Positions 5,145 to 45,807 are shown, numbered from the stretch's first letter. The stretch: 64,000 bases of DNA from a virus (IMGVR_UViG_3300043449_000987:1-64000); one strand, 5' to 3'. Numbers and translations: made by a program. Notes: generated from the sequence alone by a model not told the origin.

Positions 5145-5327
5145 ATGTCATACACAATTCAACTAGAAACTTTTAGTGGAGACACTAAAAAAATTAACCT
5201 ACCTTCAAAAGGTGCGGTTGCTCAATTCATCTCAACTTATCCAACACAACTACCTGTTGGAATTTCTGTAAAAGTATCTTGCGACGCTTTAGGTGTTCGT
5301 GGAACTTTGCGAGGTGTTGCTAAATGA
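5145..5327 (+). CDS. Small early protein, paralog of 2745-2918
   Basis: Shared G.T..INL..K..V..FI..Y...VK..CD.LG..G.L.GVA. Confidence 0.7.
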   Translation: MSYTIQLETFSGDTKKINLPSKGAVAQFISTYPTQLPVGISVKVSCDALGVRGTLRGVAK

Positions 5328-5581
5328 TGACTCGTAAAGACTATATAGAAGTAGCAAAAATTATTTCTAAACATTCAAAAGGTGAGCACTGCCGTCTTGA
5401 TGTGCTAACTGATGATTTTGCTTTTTGGTTTGCAGAAGATAACCCACGATTTAATATGGAAAAATTTTTGGAGGCTTGTAATGAATAGATTTCTAACTTC
5501 ACTAGTGCAATTATTTTTGTGGTTGCCAATTCTTTTTATTATTCGTGAATTAATAAAAGAAAAATTCACTAAATAAAGTGA

Positions 5582-5609
5582 TCACCTAAGCAAGTGAATA
5601 AACTGCTTG
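5582..5609 (+). ncRNA. H-type pseudoknot motif, copy 1
   Basis: TCAC-CTAAGCAA-GTGA-ATAAAC-TGCTTG. Confidence 0.7.
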
Positions 5610-5637
5610 AAATTTCAACTAAAAATGGGCCGAGGCG

Positions 5638-5658
5638 TTTTCCACAGGTTGTGGATAA
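5638..5658. promoter_or_regulatory. Inverted pair of DnaA boxes
   Basis: TTTTCCACA (1 mismatch) and TGTGGATAA (perfect TTATCCACA on the minus strand). Confidence 0.55.
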
Positions 5659-6033
5659 CCTTACGTTAATGTGTTTAAGATCACAGAGATTTTTCTACTG
5701 AATTACGGCGTGTCGTTTGAGATTGTCAGCCTTATCTGATAGGCTTGATTTATCAAGACGAAAGGAAAACTATGAGAGACTACTACGATGAATTCTTTGA
5801 CGACTACTATGCAAGCGTTGAGCGTGTTAGCGTGTCTGATTGCTATTGCAAGATAAATAGTGTATGCTCATATTGTATGAAAGGATATAACTAATGGGAA
5901 ACTTTATTGAGGCTCTTTGTATTGACTGCAGAGAAAACTTGGAGATTGACGGCTTCCGTTGCTTTGAGTGTTCACTTGACCACGACTACTCAGATGAGTT
6001 AGACTTAGAACTTACACTAGATTGGACAGAATA

Positions 6034-6243
6034 ATGGAATATAACTACTCACTAACTATCTCCTATGACGGAGAATTGGTATCAACAACACGCACCGCAG
6101 ATATGCTTGAAATTGTATCTGCTTGGAATAAATGTGTAGACTTTGGAGATGCTAAAGAATACGCAACCTATAACTTGTCAGACCCTATTGGCAAAATGTA
6201 TACTAAGACCTTCTATCGCAACGGAAATGTGAGTGTGAAATAA
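6034..6243 (+). CDS. Hypothetical early protein
   Basis: ORF in a tightly packed operon. Confidence 0.6.
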   Translation: MEYNYSLTISYDGELVSTTRTADMLEIVSAWNKCVDFGDAKEYATYNLSDPIGKMYTKTFYRNGNVSVK

Positions 6244-6244
6244 T

Positions 6245-6535
6245 ATGGGAAGTGTAACAGCACTAGGAATTAAAGATGCAGTATTAGACCTAGAAACACA
6301 ATTACTTTATCACCTTAAGGGTAATCACTATCCTCCAGTCCCTGCAGAAATGGTAAAACCTTGTATTGAGGCTATTGACGCATACTATGACGAGGACTAT
6401 AATCGTATGATTGATATGCCAATGGTTGGTGACTTTCAGATTACCTATAAAGGAAATAAGCAAGCACCTGCACACGCTATCGTAGAGCAACACCACCTAG
6501 AATGGTTTATTGACCCAGTAGATGGAGAGGAATAA
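6245..6535 (+). CDS. Phage hypothetical protein
   Basis: HLKGNHYPPVP..CIEAI..HHL, possible metal ligands. Confidence 0.65.
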   Translation: MGSVTALGIKDAVLDLETQLLYHLKGNHYPPVPAEMVKPCIEAIDAYYDEDYNRMIDMPMVGDFQITYKGNKQAPAHAIVEQHHLEWFIDPVDGEE

Positions 6536-6536
6536 A

Positions 6537-6779
6537 ATGGGTGCTACAATGTTAAACATGGAATTTAAAAAGGTTGATGTACTTAATGTTGATCAATTAG
6601 AAATTGGTGACTATATTTCCATTCAAGATGAAATTGTTGAGGTAACAGGAATTACTCCTTTGCCTAATGGTTATGCAATAATGTTTCTTGACTCATATGA
6701 TGAGGAAGATTTAATTGAAGTTGATGACTATGCAACTTTTAAATGGTATGTCCTAGTTGAGGATAACCTAGAGCCTTAA
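6537..6779 (+). CDS. Hypothetical acidic protein (SH3-like)
   Basis: VDQLEIGDYI motif; GAGG RBS. Confidence 0.55.
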   Translation: MGATMLNMEFKKVDVLNVDQLEIGDYISIQDEIVEVTGITPLPNGYAIMFLDSYDEEDLIEVDDYATFKWYVLVEDNLEP

Positions 6780-7004
6780 AGGCCCCGAGCAATTTGTCCT
6801 AAATGTCCGTTTTAAGAGAGTTGACATTTTTCTTTAAGTCTGCTAGTATTATTATATGAGACAGCAAAAGACCCCTGAACAATTACGTAAACTAATGGAG
6901 TTACGTAGATCTAATGCTGCTACCCCACTAAAAAATAAGAAAAAATACAATAGACAAAGTGCTAAAAAAATGTTAAAATTAGATATAGTAGAAAGAGACC
7001 CCTC

Positions 7005-7724
7005 ATGAAACTAAAACGCTCAAATGATAGAAAGGTGGCTAACCTTGTCACAAAAAATGGAAAGCAAGCAGCAATCGCTAACACTTTCGGACTACCTGCT
7101 GGAAAAAATTTCTCGTGCCCTGGTGCCACTAGTGTTTGTGAGAGCGTTTGCTACGCAGGAAAACTTGAAAAGTTATTCAAAGGAGTAAAGGCCAATCTTC
7201 TTCACAATTGGGACCTGCTCAAGGATGAAGATATTCAAGGCATGTACACTTTACTTTCTGAGATGATAGCAGATTTTAAAGCAGACTGTATCAAGAAAGA
7301 CGCCCCTATGCTATTTCGCATTCACTGGGACGGTGACTTCTTTAACGATGACTACGCTAACGCATGGCGTATGGTTATTGAAGAACAACCTGATATTCAA
7401 TTCTGGGTATACACTCGTGTAAAGTCTGCAGCGCTTATCCTAAAAGACATTCCTAACTTGTCACTTTATTTTAGTACTGATAGCGAAAATGTTAAAACAG
7501 GTGTAGAACTAAAAAATAAAAATGGTGTTCGACTTGCATACCTTGCTAAGAATTTTGCTATTGGTCAAGCAGATATGAAAGAATTAATTGGCAAGCCTGG
7601 TGCTAAGTGTCCTGAGAACAATAAACAAATTCCGCTTATCTCTAGCAATGGGTCCGCTTGCGTTTCGTGCTCACTTTGTGTATACTCTAAAAGTGATATT
7701 GTATTTAGCGCTAGTAAAAAATAA
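7005..7724 (+). CDS. GP88-like Cys-rich (possible Fe-S) phage protein
   Basis: CPGATSVCESVCYA, FRIHWDGDF, FWVYTR, CPE..ACVSCSLC. Confidence 0.7.
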   Translation: MKLKRSNDRKVANLVTKNGKQAAIANTFGLPAGKNFSCPGATSVCESVCYAGKLEKLFKGVKANLLHNWDLLKDEDIQGMYTLLSEMIADFKADCIKKDAPMLFRIHWDGDFFNDDYANAWRMVIEEQPDIQFWVYTRVKSAALILKDIPNLSLYFSTDSENVKTGVELKNKNGVRLAYLAKNFAIGQADMKELIGKPGAKCPENNKQIPLISSNGSACVSCSLCVYSKSDIVFSASKK

Positions 7725-7950
7725 ATGAAAACGTTTTTGTTTATTTTACTTTGGTTATTTTATTTATTTTTGTTGCAGTAAATCCCCTGCGATCTGCTGA
7801 AAAATCTCGGGGGCAAAATCTTTGCTTTGTCAAGTTACGACACGCTGTTAAGATGTGGGGTTTATCACACTGGAAAATGTCATTTGGATTGGTATTTTTG
7901 ACATTTTTTCGCTATACTTAATACATACCCAAACGAAAGGAAAGACCCCT

Positions 7951-8121
7951 ATGACACTCCACGGATACACTTACCAAATTGGTGATTTATTCACAACAAG
8001 CAAGACAGGCGTTACAGGTCGTATCGCAGGTTTCACACCAATGTCTAATAAGGTTACCAGAGTTAGTCTAATCTTGGCAAATGGCTCACAACGCCTTGCT
8101 ATGGTAAAGACTTCTAAGTAA
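7951..8121 (+). CDS. Small SH3/KOW-like protein
   Basis: True start MTLHGY after GAAAGGA; YQIGD.FTT.KTGVTGRI. Confidence 0.7.
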   Translation: MTLHGYTYQIGDLFTTSKTGVTGRIAGFTPMSNKVTRVSLILANGSQRLAMVKTSK

Positions 8122-8152
8122 TCTCAAAATGTGAGAAATGTCAGAAATGGAT

Positions 8153-8182
8153 TTGACATTTTTCTCTCAAAAATGTTATACT
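8153..8182 (+). promoter_or_regulatory. Promoter TTGACA-18-TATACT with extended -10
   Basis: Consensus match; TCTCA-N5-TGAGA palindrome at 8122-8136. Confidence 0.7.
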
Positions 8183-8223
8183 AATAATGTAAGCAAAACC
8201 CCTAACAGAAAAGGAAAAACAAA

Positions 8224-8391
8224 ATGGCAGTAGCAACAGCAACATACAAGGTAGGAGATACCTACACAACACAAAAGTCAAAGATTACAGGAACAATTCT
8301 TGAAATCACACCTAACAAGACAGGCGACAGCGTTCGTGTTAAGTTAGATGTAAATGGCGCAACACGCTACACAACTTGGACAGCCAAGTAA
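8224..8391 (+). CDS. Small SH3/KOW-like protein, paralog of 7951-8121
   Basis: MAVATATYKVGDTYTTQKSKITGTILEITPNKTGDSVRVKLDVNGATRYTTWTAK; not in the ORF track. Confidence 0.75.
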   Translation: MAVATATYKVGDTYTTQKSKITGTILEITPNKTGDSVRVKLDVNGATRYTTWTAK

Positions 8392-8401
8392 ATTGACAAA
8401 A

Positions 8402-8433
8402 ATCTCCTGAGTATGAGATACTTAAACTGCTCA
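8402..8433 (+). ncRNA. H-type pseudoknot motif, copy 2
   Basis: ATCTC-CTGAGTAT-GAGAT-ACTTAAAC-TGCTCA. Confidence 0.75.
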
Positions 8434-8468
8434 CTCACCCCCAACTAATAGAAAAGGAAACAGACCCA

Positions 8469-8891
8469 ATGGCAAGAGGAAAAGCAATTAGCGTTAAAAT
8501 CGCTACACCTAAAGTAATCAAGGCACTAGAAACTCGTCTAGCACAACTAGAAAAAGACTATGCTACACAAGGCGAGAACGAAGCAAAGTATCAGAAGTCA
8601 GTAGAAAAGTGGCGTAAGGAAATTGGCAAGTGGGCTATTGACCACTTCTCAAAGGCTGAGAACCTTCGCACAAACTATCGTTCTTGGAACAAAACTCTCA
8701 ATGTAGATTTTGACATCATAGTCAATGAAAAGGATTTTCCAGCAGAGCCTGAAAAAGACTTTGAGACAATTCATCAGCACACCTACAATGAGATGAAAGA
8801 GGAAATGACGAACGCAATTCGTATCCTCAAGATGACAGATGAGGAAGTTGTAAATACTTCCACATACAATGCGGTGGCTCGTTATCTATAA
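8469..8891 (+). CDS. Hypothetical early protein (coiled coil)
   Basis: 140 aa with strong RBS. Confidence 0.75.
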   Translation: MARGKAISVKIATPKVIKALETRLAQLEKDYATQGENEAKYQKSVEKWRKEIGKWAIDHFSKAENLRTNYRSWNKTLNVDFDIIVNEKDFPAEPEKDFETIHQHTYNEMKEEMTNAIRILKMTDEEVVNTSTYNAVARYL

Positions 8892-8903
8892 TTAGATAAT
8901 AAA

Positions 8904-8931
8904 CGACCTGAGTATGTCGCTAAACTACTCA
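8904..8931 (+). ncRNA. H-type pseudoknot motif, copy 3
   Basis: CGAC-CTGAGTAT-GTCG-CTAAAC-TACTCA. Confidence 0.75.
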
Positions 8932-9045
8932 ACACGACCACAGAAATGCGTGTATAAATAAATAGAGTGGAAAATTCGCCAGGCTGATTAGGGCGATGAT
9001 AGAAATACTATAGAGCAAGGGTACTGCAGCCCTAAAGAAGCAGAC
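8932..9045 (+). ncRNA. Candidate structured ncRNA between pseudoknot copies 3 and 4
   Basis: Stems ACACG/CGTGT, TCGCC/GGCGA, ATAG-AAATA-CTAT and CTGC/GCAG; loop complementarity GGCTG/CAGCC. Confidence 0.45.
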
Positions 9046-9072
9046 ATCCTGAGCACGATCCAAAAAGGCTCA
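9046..9072 (+). ncRNA. H-type pseudoknot motif, copy 4
   Basis: ATC-CTGAGCAC-GAT-CCAAAAAG-GCTCA, followed by a CCC-TACG-GGG UNCG hairpin. Confidence 0.65.
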
Positions 9073-9085
9073 CCCTACGGGGTCC

Positions 9086-9115
9086 TTGACAAATGTCACT
9101 GGGCACCTGTACAAT
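9086..9115 (+). promoter_or_regulatory. Promoter TTGACA-18-TACAAT
   Basis: Consensus match upstream of 9148. Confidence 0.7.
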
Positions 9116-9147
9116 TAAATAAAACAAACTAACAGAAAGAGGCCCCC

Positions 9148-9555
9148 ATGGACCAAGTAATAAATGCAACACAGGAATTTTTAACAACACAGATTGCACA
9201 AAAGGATGAACGCATTCAGCAATTAGAAGAGCACATTCAAAAAGTAACACAGCGCTCATATGCAGATTCTGCAGATAAGAATCGTATGGTTGAAGCAATG
9301 CAAGAGTGGACCTTGGAGCAATTGGACGAGGGGTCTCTTACAGAATCGCAGGCTGAAGAGATTGCAGAAATCATGGGCTTTGAATTAACAAAAGAATTCG
9401 AAGTTGAAGCGACCGTCATGTATTCAATTACAGTCAATGCACGTAATGAAGAAGAAGCAATTAATGCAATTCATGATATCGATTTCGACACTGTCTCTTA
9501 TAACTCTGATAATATTTCTTGGTTATCAAGTTCTGTTGACAGAGTAGATATTTAG
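9148..9555 (+). CDS. Hypothetical acidic protein
   Basis: 135 aa; C-terminal V.A..EEEA motif shared with 12541. Confidence 0.7.
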   Translation: MDQVINATQEFLTTQIAQKDERIQQLEEHIQKVTQRSYADSADKNRMVEAMQEWTLEQLDEGSLTESQAEEIAEIMGFELTKEFEVEATVMYSITVNARNEEEAINAIHDIDFDTVSYNSDNISWLSSSVDRVDI

Positions 9556-9572
9556 TAGGGGGCTACTAATAC

Positions 9573-9599
9573 AGACCTGGGCATGTCTTTAAACGGCCC
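9573..9599 (+). ncRNA. H-type pseudoknot motif, copy 5
   Basis: AGAC-CTGGGCAT-GTCT-TTAAACG-GCCC (compensatory GG/CC). Confidence 0.7.
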
Positions 9600-9766
9600 C
9601 TCTTACATTCCCTCAAAAAAATCTCGGGGGGCGTGACCTAAATCACATGTGTTTAAGATCACCTTAAGAAAATGTCCGAATTGCCCCATGATTACGTACC
9701 CTATTTGACTTTGTCAGACCCAACTGCTAAAATTATATAAACAAACAACAAAAAGGAGAAAAACTC

Positions 9767-10783
9767 ATGGCACATGACCTAGAAGAACAAAACGGAAAGA
9801 CCTCATTTGCATCTTTTCGTGAGCCTGCATGGCATGGATTGGGTACCGTATTCACTGAAGAAAAAACAACTGCAGAAATGTTAGAGGCTGCAAACCTTAA
9901 CAACTGGAATGTTCGTTTAGAAGATATGGAAATCCCAACACATCTAACAAGCGACAAGGCATATCAATATGTTTTGCGTACTAACCCTACTGATAACTCT
10001 CAAACTGATGTTTTGGGTGTTGTTGGTGAGCGTTATGTTCCCCTACAAAATGAAGATTTATTTTCATTTGGTGACAATATCCTAGACGGCGGTGGTCGTT
10101 GGGAGACTGCTGGCTCAATTAAAGGTGGGCGTGTAGTATTTGGCTCTCTTGCTCTTGAGCGTGAGACTGTTCTAGACCCTAATGGTGTTGCAGATAAGGT
10201 AAAAACTTATTTGCTCATTAACACATCACATGATGGCTCAATCGCTATTCAAGCAAGCATAACACCTGTTCGTGTTGTGTGCGCTAATACTCTTAACCTT
10301 GCTCTTGGTAGCAAGAAAAAGAAGAATGGCATCAAGCAATCATTCAAAATTCGCCACACACAAACTGCTCAAGGTAAAGTGCAGATTGCTCGTGAGACTC
10401 TTGGTCTTGCTAATGCGTACATGGATGAATTCGATATCATGGCTAAGGCAATGATTGAAAAAACTGTTGATGCTAAAGCATTTAACGATATCATTCTTGC
10501 TGCATATCCAAAACCTGAAAAGGATGCTAAGGGTTCTCTCAAGAAGTGGGAAAACAAAATTGATATCATTAACGATATCTACACTGGCGAATTTAATGGT
10601 ATGATTGCTGGTAACGCATGGGGCGCATTTAACGCTCTTACTGAACGCCTTGATTGGTATCGCTCTGCTCGTGGTGGTAACAATGAAAGCATTCTTGCAT
10701 CTGCATCTGGTTTTGACCCTGCAATTAACGCAGAAAAAAATCGTTTGCTAAAAGTTGTACAAAATGTAATGCAACTCGCATAA
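9767..10783 (+). CDS. DUF932 / TIGR03299-like phage-plasmid protein
   Basis: PAWHGLG, LGVVG.RY.P.QN, ETAGS..GG, NTSHDGS, RVVCANT, IRHT motifs. Confidence 0.85.
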   Translation: MAHDLEEQNGKTSFASFREPAWHGLGTVFTEEKTTAEMLEAANLNNWNVRLEDMEIPTHLTSDKAYQYVLRTNPTDNSQTDVLGVVGERYVPLQNEDLFSFGDNILDGGGRWETAGSIKGGRVVFGSLALERETVLDPNGVADKVKTYLLINTSHDGSIAIQASITPVRVVCANTLNLALGSKKKKNGIKQSFKIRHTQTAQGKVQIARETLGLANAYMDEFDIMAKAMIEKTVDAKAFNDIILAAYPKPEKDAKGSLKKWENKIDIINDIYTGEFNGMIAGNAWGAFNALTERLDWYRSARGGNNESILASASGFDPAINAEKNRLLKVVQNVMQLA

Positions 10784-10787
10784 CAAA

Positions 10788-10816
10788 AAATCCTGAGCAT
10801 GATTTAAAACTGCTCA
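10788..10816 (+). ncRNA. H-type pseudoknot motif, copy 6
   Basis: AAATC-CTGAGCAT-GATTT-AAAAC-TGCTCA, ending 6 nt before tRNA-Asp. Confidence 0.75.
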
Positions 10817-10822
10817 CCATTT

Positions 10823-10896
10823 GGTCCGTTAGAATAGTTGGTTAGTTCGCTACCCTGTCACGGTAGAGGTCACGGGTTCAAGTCCCGTACGGATCG
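10823..10896 (+). tRNA. tRNA-Asp(GTC)
   Basis: Cloverleaf; anticodon arm CTACC-CTGTCAC-GGTAG; GGTTCAAGTCCC T-arm. Confidence 0.95.
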
Positions 10897-10974
10897 CAAA
10901 AAGGGGCCGAGTGAGATTTTCTCGGGTTTGTGATTAAGATCACATGACATTTTTCCCCAAACTACATTACGTAC

Positions 10975-11003
10975 TTGACATTATTTTCCTGGGGTTGTAA
11001 AAT
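10975..11003 (+). promoter_or_regulatory. Promoter TTGACA-17-TAAAAT
   Basis: Consensus match downstream of the perfect CRP box at 10929. Confidence 0.7.
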
Positions 11004-11321
11004 TAATACATGACCCAAAACTTCAAACCTTATACCGTACTTGAACTAGTTAATGAAATCTATGAGGATAACTATTCTCATTTGGAATTTGAGGAGAACA
11101 TGGGTGGAGACCCTTGTGACTGCCACATCTGCAACACCCTTAACACTATTGTAAAGTATTGGGGAGAATAATGCTAGGATATACACAAAGAGATTTAGCA
11201 GATATGACCTATGGTGTTGGTCAAGCAGATTTATTAATCAACGCTGATGAAAACCCTGCAATCCATAATTATCTAGTTATGGCAGAAGACTTCTTAAGAG
11301 GTTTATGGGCAGAGGGGTATT

Positions 11322-44724: not shown

Positions 44725-45807
44725 TTACTTAACTAGTGTAACCTTTGACTTTGGATTAGCCTTGTTCCACTTTGTAGCAAGTGCATTGAATGCTTTCTTA
44801 ATTGCAGCAAGTGCAGCAGCATTATCTGCCTTTAACTTTGCAATTTCTGCATCCTTAGCAGCGATTGTTGCTGTTGCAGAGTCTGTTGCAGACTTTAGAT
44901 CTGCTGCAGCCTTAGTTGCTGCTGCTGCTGCGTTAGCATTTGCGGTTGCAAGAGCAGCATCTGCTACAGCCTTGGCAGCAACTGCTGCATCTGCAATAGC
45001 CTTTTGTGCTGCAAGTTCAGAAAGAAGATCACGAACTGTGATTGTCTTTACTACGCTTGAGGTTACTGTGTTGAATCCTGCTACTGCAGTTGCAACATCA
45101 GATGCGTTGGTAACAGAAACAACAAGTGTTGAAGAACCTGTTGCTGGAAGTGTTACCTTAAATTCTGCTTGACCAAAATTGGTTAGAGTTGAACCAGTTG
45201 TAGCAGTAGTTGTATCAAGGGTTCCGCCAACAACAAGTGCTGTTAGGCCCTTACCTGATACCTTATTTCCAAATACGTCTGTTGCTGTTACTGTTGCAGT
45301 TACAACGCTTGAAGTTGTTCCGCCATCGGCAGCAGAAACTGATACGGTATTAATCTTACCTGCAGTTCCTTGTACGTAATATGTAAGTGTTGTTCCGCCA
45401 TTTGTAATTGCAACTGTTCCAATTGCGGTTGTCTTTGTATAGACATAAAATGTTGCGGTTGTTCCTGTACCAGTTGCAATTGTCAAGGATGATGATCCTG
45501 ATGATGCAGATACTGGTGCAGCAGATGTGTGTAGTGCAGACACGATTGTTGCATTAGTAGTTACTACAGAAACATTTGTTCCTGTATCAACTGTTGCGAC
45601 GAACTTTAGTGCGTCAGCAGCATCAACTGTATTGTCTGCAGGGACTGGCAATGCAGCAGGAGTAGCAATTGCGGAAGCGGTTGTATTAGCCGTTCCGTCA
45701 AGAGATACAGCGACTGTCATTACAGCAGCACTTGCAGGTGATGCCACGATTGTTGCGGTAGTCATGGCTGCAACCACGGCTAGAGCGATTTTCTTAAATG
45801 ACTTCAT
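44725..45807 (-). CDS. Secreted Ala/Thr-rich Ig-like protein with C-terminal coiled coil
   Basis: Signal peptide (PASA), TATDVFGN Ig-like motif, Ala/Lys helix. Confidence 0.7.
   Translation of the reverse strand: MKSFKKIALAVVAAMTTATIVASPASAAVMTVAVSLDGTANTTASAIATPAALPVPADNTVDAADALKFVATVDTGTNVSVVTTNATIVSALHTSAAPVSASSGSSSLTIATGTGTTATFYVYTKTTAIGTVAITNGGTTLTYYVQGTAGKINTVSVSAADGGTTSSVVTATVTATDVFGNKVSGKGLTALVVGGTLDTTTATTGSTLTNFGQAEFKVTLPATGSSTLVVSVTNASDVATAVAGFNTVTSSVVKTITVRDLLSELAAQKAIADAAVAAKAVADAALATANANAAAAATKAAADLKSATDSATATIAAKDAEIAKLKADNAAALAAIKKAFNALATKWNKANPKSKVTLVK

Follow-up and report, generated by a model that had tools for sequence, protein, structure and literature searches.

Positions 5,582 to 10,816 of a 64,000-nucleotide (nt) stretch of viral DNA, IMGVR_UViG_3300043449_000987:1-64000 (hereafter, the window; the first 64 kb of a 100,367-bp viral record), hold six copies of a roughly 30-nt element, five of them soon after a stop codon, which raises the question of what this element is and what it does at the ends of genes. 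A first-pass annotation, made from the window alone, had read the copies as RNA pseudoknots of an unrecognized family attached to early genes. From a close reading of positions 5400 to 11000 and comparison with other viral, bacterial and archaeal sequences, we conclude that the element is a strand-specific, RNA-level H-type pseudoknot, and we favor, with a little less than even confidence, a role as a barrier to RNA decay.

Six plus-strand copies (PK1 to PK6) were located by sequence reading and structure scans of the window, and all six follow the plan given in the first-pass annotation: a stem (P1), an 8-nt loop starting with C, the second arm of P1, an A-rich linker and a final segment (P2') that complements loop bases 2 to 7 to form a second helix (P2). 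The loop is CUGAGCAW or a near variant, and the linker ends in AAAC, or in AAAAA-G in PK4. PK1 (5582-5609) consists of P1 TCAC/GTGA, loop CTAAGCAA, linker ATAAAC and P2' TGCTTG; PK2 (8402-8433) of P1 ATCTC/GAGAT, loop CTGAGTAT, linker ACTTAAAC, which bears a 3-nt insertion at its 5' end, and P2' TGCTCA; and PK3 (8904-8931) of P1 CGAC/GTCG, loop CTGAGTAT again, linker CTAAAC and P2' TACTCA. PK4 (9046-9072) has the shortest P1, ATC/GAT, with loop CTGAGCAC, linker CCAAAAAG and P2' GCTCA, while P1 is AGAC/GTCT in PK5 (9573-9600; loop CTGGGCAT, linker TTAAAC, P2 GGGC/GCCC) and AAATC/GATTT in PK6 (10788-10816; loop CTGAGCAT, linker AAAAC, P2' TGCTCA). The G-U pairs reported earlier for P2 are present, and the P2 of PK5 consists of four G-C pairs only. 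We then built a covariance model, R1, from five copies, leaving out PK2 and specifying only P1 as pairs, and ran it over the whole window with filters off. The seed copies scored 37 to 45 bits (PK1, 37.6; PK3, 41.9; PK4, 37.4; PK5, 39.5; PK6, 45.4), and the held-out PK2 was recovered independently at 24.7 bits (E 0.0014), the next-best match in the window reaching only 12.4 bits. A seventh copy suspected on the minus strand at 2707-2744 shows the TGAGCA...TGCTCA pairing but has no P1 and was undetected by R1, and we do not retain it.

The consensus of the element is GWC/CUGAGCAW/GWC/N-AAAC-U/GCUC, with a P1 of 4 to 5 bp (3 to 5 bp among the window copies), a P2 of 5 to 6 Watson-Crick pairs, a first loop (L1) of 1 nt (C), a junction of 1 nt (A or U) and an A-rich third loop (L3) of 5 nt ending in AAAC. 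A single nucleotide is able to bridge the deep groove of 6 bp, and these loop sizes fit a tight classical H-type knot. To examine the helices on a larger sample, we gathered 80 related viral loci through the DUF932 protein encoded before PK6 (the family set), in which R1 gave 397 matches. Among 97 distinct family copies, P1 pairs 6-19 (AU, UA, GC or CG) and 7-18 (UA or AU) were unbroken, and the C8-G17 pair closing P1 was invariant both in these and in 88 distinct copies from unrelated phages. Paired cells made up 91.6% of the family alignment compared to 78.3% after shuffling and 29 to 35% in slid registers. For the 88 copies from unrelated viral contigs, the figures were 90.9% and 76.0%, respectively, and the covariation score of the same alignment was 0.449, compared to 0.170 after shuffling and no more than 0.097 in slid registers. 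P1 thus differs among copies yet pairs in both alignments, as had been claimed from the six copies. Since P2 was absent from R1, it was tested separately by scanning the viral collection for copies with one non-consensus P2 base. Among the matches listed, the partner was complementary in 120 of the 122 copies altered at position 13 (A-U 102, U-A 10, C-G 8) and in 118 of the 120 altered at position 12, so that 238 of 242 altered phage copies keep the complement, bearing out the covariation between loop and P2'; P1 formed in nearly all of these copies.

The element is also strictly oriented. An independent scan of 81 related loci counted 322 copies on the gene strand and 1 on the opposite strand, and G-U pairs occur on the sense strand only. 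Together with the covariation of both helices, this upholds the earlier argument for an RNA structure rather than a DNA operator. Either helix by itself is weak (-0.8 to -5.4 kcal/mol), so the fold must rest on both helices and on tertiary contacts. PK4 (at 9060-9068) and 4 of the 88 copies from unrelated phages carry a linked change in which AAAC-U becomes AAAA-G and the partner of A15 is lost, which hints that C27 and U28 act jointly in the fold.

Unrelated viral contigs with a copy number in the hundreds. In bacteria and archaea, the consensus pattern occurs in at least 119 genomic stretches, 86 of them with the canonical spacing and 80 of these with P1; the matches at other spacings mostly lack P1 and are consistent with chance. 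The bacterial hosts named for copies belong to many phyla. Among cultured phages, cyanophage S-RIM4 (record position 45609), Mycobacterium phage Labelle (56437), Erwinia phage Berlingot (4708) and Lentibacter phage ICBM1 (14302), which infect cyanobacteria, actinobacteria and proteobacteria, carry one clear copy each, located 9 to 16 nt past an annotated gene in three of the four and, in Berlingot, in a stretch without annotated gene. Copies also occur in tandem: three knots about 42 nt apart (P2 GAGC, GAGU and GGGC) occupy positions 199-310 of contig L374, about 25 nt ahead of a T7-type primase-helicase gene. A further contig, L213 (1.76 kb), has a single long open reading frame (ORF), which a protein atlas groups with mitovirus RNA-dependent RNA polymerases (RdRps; Lenarviricota, score 0.97); we call the contig mitovirus-like through this atlas alone. 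Its 3' untranslated region (UTR) carries GUC/CUGAACAA/GAC...CUAAAC/UGUUCA at 1450-1495, 17 nt past the stop codon, and this Watson-Crick knot indicates that the element spans DNA phages and RNA viruses. One protein upstream of another copy matched RdRP_1; the contig is distinct from L213, and the individual member could not be traced.

No match to the window region was found among phages by megablast, and none to the copies in Rfam 15, either for the window at gathering score or for positions 5300-11100 at E up to 10. The literature on the sequence, on phage pseudoknots past stop codons and on phage exonuclease-resistant RNAs (xrRNAs) yielded no description of the element. The family, which the first-pass annotation did not recognize, is absent from Rfam 15; it is not wholly without known kin, since it bears a close likeness to the coremin xrRNA of plant viruses.

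The position of the knot relative to genes is narrowly defined. Taking upstream ORFs of 60 amino acids (aa) or more, we measured the offset between the initial C of CCU and the first base of the stop codon, separately in the phage family, in unrelated phages and in bacterial genomes. In each of the three sets the offset peaks at -11/-12 and counts fall with distance, while positions -10 to -1 are almost empty. Positions -8 to -5 hold no sequence information, indicating that the -11 limit is positional and not a sequence constraint. When the A site holds the stop codon, an offset of -11 places the first P1 pair approximately +11/+12 from the P-site codon, and the ribosomal helicase sits near this distance. 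The knot is thus held just outside the terminating ribosome, as near to it as possible. In the window, the gaps from stop codon to P1 are 5, 10, 12, 17 and 4 nt for PK1, PK2, PK3, PK5 and PK6, respectively, in agreement with the five near-stop copies first described. PK1 follows a 54-aa ORF whose TAA stop stands at offset -11, PK2 lies between two genes, with the next start codon (8469) about 36 nt further on, PK3 and PK5 lie downstream of a 140-aa and a 135-aa gene, respectively, and PK4 is without an upstream ORF. PK6 follows the TAA stop of the DUF932 gene, again at offset -11, and its end is separated by 6 nt from tRNA-Asp (10823-10897, plus strand), confirming their reported adjacency.

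This neighborhood of PK6 is retained in the family, in which tRNA-Asp lies 2 to 8 nt 3' of 79 copies. In unrelated phages, a tRNA begins 0 to 12 nt 3' of 16 of 303 copies, and aragorn assigned an identity to 14 of the 16, covering eight types; several copies show the full order of ORF stop at -11, knot, 2 to 5 nt and tRNA. The knot is seldom found directly past a tRNA: only 1 of 16 upstream tRNAs in the unrelated phages lies within 12 nt, and none does in the family and bacterial sets. The next start codon peaks 20 to 40 nt past the knot, and the 3' flank is poor in G over about 9 nt and shows no other conservation. In the 90 nt past the knot, terminator-like hairpins are rarer than at other gene ends of the same loci (0.6% versus 2.8% and 2.4% versus 6.0%). 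Recurring upstream genes encode DUF932 (11 of 120), HSP20, HTH_39, capsid and ribonucleotide reductase proteins, and the downstream genes are varied, including scaffold proteins and primase-helicase. A description as an element of early genes or of this phage alone is thus too narrow.

Among the roles suggested earlier, a 3' cap or processing signal best fits these placement data, and our leading interpretation, held just short of even confidence, is that the knot is a mechanical barrier to RNA decay that would fix the ends of stable RNA segments. The knot would fold in the ribosome-free gap past the gene, and a cut would be made in the transcript 3' of it, by RNase P if a tRNA comes next and by an endonuclease elsewhere. 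Exonucleases working 3' to 5' would trim back to the knot and stall, so that the message left behind would keep its stop codon and could still be translated. The tandem arrays, the rarity of terminator-like hairpins past the knot and the likeness to coremin lend this reading further support. The tRNA-adjacent copies argue for such a 3' cap, since RNase P cleavage at a tRNA 0 to 12 nt past the knot would leave on the message the knot and a tail of a few nucleotides. PNPase and RNase R need a longer tail than this to take hold of an RNA. The same fold may block 5'-to-3' decay into the downstream segment, as coremin-type xrRNAs do; the copies ahead of scaffold and primase genes, together with the coremin precedent, leave room for this direction.

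Several points weigh against a decay barrier. The helices being weak, nuclease resistance would hang on putative tertiary contacts, and the copies preceding scaffold or primase genes would suit protection of the downstream segment. Vibrio, Erwinia and similar hosts are not known to possess a 5'-to-3' exonuclease. One class of bacterial copies has a terminator past the knot, which would make a 3' cap redundant there. In addition, a second hairpin (hp2) is not enriched: a hairpin of at least 4 bp starts 0 to 3 nt past P2' in 6 to 14% of the copies, compared to 7 to 12% in shuffled flanks, PK4 and its orthologues being the exception. Ordinary frameshift pseudoknots are reported not to stop Xrn1, and coremin itself is reported to need its second hairpin (PMC6546385, PMC10520033, PMC10321173).

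A distinct arrangement was observed in bacteria. In about 20 of the 80 bacterial copies, a conserved ORF of about 20 aa with the motif M-K-R-F-M-x-P-R-x-[AS]-H-C-x-x-G-C-x-x-x-S uses the UGA of the loop as its in-frame stop (L091:109-168; L163:2745-2804, minus strand; L144:1996-2055; L149:7520-7579, minus strand; L101:6059-6136; and about 15 more). The ORF comes with a promoter and a Shine-Dalgarno sequence of its own, an intrinsic terminator often lies 3' of the knot, the Cys and Gly codons vary synonymously, and the downstream genes are variable. No Pfam or NCBIfam family matched the encoded peptide. This class looks like a translation-gated form of the knot, in which a ribosome on the tiny ORF would have to melt the knot to get to its own UGA stop within the loop.

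The knot could instead be directed at the ribosome, sitting at the leading edge of the terminating ribosome to block sliding, readthrough or coupling or to insulate downstream RNA such as a tRNA. The sharp -11 limit and the pile-up at the stop codon are a spacing that only the ribosome "knows," coremin acts on ribosomes in vitro (see below), and the bacterial ORF ending on the loop UGA ties translation to the fold. The -11 limit is, however, equally explained by keeping any functional fold clear of the ribosome, and a plain spacer would insulate as well. Many copies lie 15 to 60 nt past the stop or, like PK4, have no upstream ORF, no slippery heptamer or conserved upstream sequence is present, and the frames close a few codons past the stop, so that we consider this explanation unlikely. 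Less probable still is a binding site, decoy or aptamer, in which a conserved protein, another RNA or a small molecule would recognize the near-invariant letters, as in a sponge for a host factor, an anti-defense decoy or a riboswitch-like sensor. The conservation across phyla exceeds what the helices need (C8-G17, C9, U10, A15 and AAAC-U), tandem arrays exist, copies are frequent in mobile elements beside ArdA, DUF3768 and DUF2958 genes, and the topology is similar to that of preQ1-I. These letters are, however, the ones that coremin mutagenesis shows to be needed for a protein-free fold (PMC6546385). Moreover, no gene family is constantly linked to the copies, which lie after genes and not in 5' leaders, and the 1-nt second loop (L2) leaves little space for a ligand pocket of the preQ1-I type. 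These features and the missing Rfam match also speak against the preQ1-like aptamer proposed in the first pass. The proposal of a ToxI-like decoy fares no better, the copies being dispersed and no ToxN-type toxin gene having been noticed beside any of them, in the course of an inspection that included no systematic search.

An action on RNA polymerase or Rho, by which the nascent knot would alter elongation (put-like antitermination or anti-backtracking) or bar Rho from loading in the untranslated gap, appears improbable. Like put RNAs, the knot must remain folded and untranslated, it recurs along operons without terminators, its 3' flank is G-poor, and RNA polymerase is a universal partner that would explain conservation across hosts. 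Against this, the element has no resemblance to put or nut sequences and is often the last one ahead of a tRNA or a convergent gene; coremin functions without a polymerase, and the 3' UTR of the mitovirus-like contig is never transcribed by a bacterial one. We give even less credence to the knot being a processing site itself, whether a small self-cleaving ribozyme or a tRNA-like substrate of RNase P or RNase Z. Small ribozymes are common in phage intergenic gaps, the knot-to-tRNA spacing (0 to 8 nt) is like that between tRNAs, and coaxial P2 and P1 would form an 11-bp minihelix. However, the knot accounts for almost all of the conserved letters, no NCCA or other 3' flank is conserved beyond this phage family, and copies are rarely in or directly past tRNA arrays and match no Rfam ribozyme. 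Finally, a DNA-level site, either an operator or a single-stranded DNA hairpin, is suggested by the CRP-like palindromes and promoters that crowd the same region, but it is effectively refuted by the strand bias relative to gene direction and by the covariation: G-U pairs would be A-C mismatches on the other strand, and neither the fixed spacing to stop codons nor the presence in an RNA virus suits such a site.

Several more specific identities were considered and rejected. An intrinsic terminator, raised in the first-pass annotation, is ruled against by the lack of a U-tract (T frequency of 0.4 to 0.5 in the 3' flank) and the depletion of terminator-like hairpins past the knot; no plus-strand terminator was called at any of the six copies, and co-directional genes begin 10 to 40 nt downstream. 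A type III antitoxin of the ToxI kind does not agree with a P1 that differs among copies or with neighbors that are DUF932, GP88 and proteins of unknown function. For a frameshift or readthrough signal, upstream information beyond the stop codon is lacking, as is a slippery heptamer, and the frames close within a few codons. A tRNA-like acceptor mimic with a 3' NCCA was discarded because ACCA past P2' is common only in this phage family and absent from the bacterial and other viral copies, and a boxA-like UGCUCUUU is present in a minority of copies only.

Other features of the window lie between and around the knots. Immediately 3' of PK4, a hairpin, CCC(UACG)GGG (9073-9082, plus strand), is positioned like the hp2 of coremin; PK4 orthologues have CCC(GCAA)GGG in its place, and a TTGACA promoter-like site follows it. 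The non-coding stretch between PK3 and PK4 (8932-9045) holds a conserved CGCCAGG...TAGGGCG hairpin module with 35 matches in related loci, and this module, PK4, the CCC-tetraloop-GGG hairpin and the TTGACA promoter recur jointly in relatives. The stretch may be a small RNA with a knot on either side. CRP-like palindromes, GTGTTTAAGATCAC and GTGATTAAGATCAC, are found at 5672-5685, 9650-9663 and 10930-10943, upstream of promoter-like sites, and a recurring AAATCTCGGGG or CCGAG...CTCGG hairpin lies at 7803, 9620 and 10905-10935; palindromes and hairpin alike are features separate from the knots. Two neighboring genes could be assigned to families, a 239-aa gene at 7005-7724 to Pfam GP88 and the 338-aa gene at 9767-10783 to DUF932. 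Among cultured phages, those of Streptomyces encode the nearest relatives of this DUF932 protein (about 54% identity), and the order DUF932 gene, knot, tRNA-Asp recurs in more distant phages (L223, L253 and L404).

If the barrier role is true, the knot would be the first xrRNA-like element on record in bacteria and the DNA viruses that infect them, and among the most abundant small structured phage RNAs missing from catalogues. It would provide a simple rule for setting the ends and lifetimes of gene-sized transcript pieces without terminators, including at the boundary between message and tRNA. The strict 11-nt spacing to the stop codon reports, in vivo, how far the terminating ribosome reaches, and an element of 30 nt would be convenient as a portable RNA stabilizer. 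It would also connect the plant-virus coremin, whose structure is unsolved, to a natural alignment of large size in which Watson-Crick pairs covary cleanly, which should aid in solving the coremin fold.

Among known systems, repetitive extragenic palindromic (REP) elements and the RNase III-left hairpins of T7 early mRNA are also dispersed extragenic structures past stop codons or between cistrons, with a proposed protection of the upstream segment that does not halt transcription. In contrast to these, the element is a pseudoknot with conserved loop letters that is kept across phyla and in RNA viruses rather than within one genome. The -1 frameshift knots of luteoviruses, such as that of beet western yellows virus, share its compactness, a short L1 with a C, a one-base junction, an A-rich L3 in the minor groove of P1 and a similar distance from the A-site codon (4 to 8 nt at the mode). 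They differ from it in that the phage knot comes after a stop codon, without slippery heptamer and with closed downstream frames, at a spacing often too long for frameshifting. The preQ1-I riboswitch (RF00522) has the same topology, with a 5-bp P1, a tail ending in AAAACU and a P2 between loop and tail. Its L2 is, however, 4 to 6 nt long, whereas that of the phage knot is 1 nt, leaving no comparable pocket; the phage P2 is long and canonical, and the copies are multiple, located after genes, without a link to queuosine genes and without an Rfam match.

The nearest known system is coremin (xrRNA-C; Dilweg et al.), which occurs in beny-, cucumo- and other plant and fungal RNA viruses and has a Watson-Crick variant, xrRNA-WCC. 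Coremin consists of GUC/CGAA/GAC/GUUAAACUAC followed by a second hairpin, occurs in tandem and is thought to form an H-type knot (PMC6546385, PMC10520033, PMC10321173). In vitro, it halts both Xrn1 and scanning ribosomes and stimulates -1 frameshifting (PMC6546385, PMC10520033, PMC10321173). It requires a C-G (or U-A) loop-closing pair (PMC6546385), a YGAD or YGNNAD loop and the spacer residues A15-A17, C18 and U19 (PMC6546385, PMC10520033), and the position of the G in the loop must be kept (PMC10520033); phages and bacteria are not mentioned in PMC10520033. The phage knot likewise has a short first hairpin with preferred G-W-C arms and a C-G closing pair, and its loop has a pyrimidine at the start and A-D at the end, being C...A-W in essentially all copies with a last base of C in about 8 to 15%. 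The AAA-C-U spacer is shared as well (A24-A26, C27 and U28 are near-invariant here), its length varying only at the 5' end of the linker, where coremin tolerates insertions and PK2 has one, and so are the loop-spacer pairing into an H-type knot, the tandem copies and the location in 3' UTRs or intergenic regions. In the mitovirus-like contig, a Watson-Crick knot past the RdRp ORF even has the GUC/GAC stem of coremin. On the other hand, the phage loop is 8 nt long, with an invariant U second and the G third, while the G is second in coremin; P2 comprises 5 to 6 canonical pairs instead of a non-canonical or 3-bp contact; and the hosts are bacteria, which have no Xrn1. The shared stem, loop ends and AAACU, combined with a longer Watson-Crick loop pairing, the U at the second position and the lack of hp2, make the element coremin-like rather than a member of coremin. 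It is possible, if on the whole doubtful, that the phage knot represents the canonical Watson-Crick form of the coremin fold, which would serve in DNA phages, bacteria and RNA viruses as a protein-independent roadblock to bacterial exonucleases, ribosomes or both, akin to that of xrRNAs to Xrn1, and in some bacteria as a translation-gated switch.

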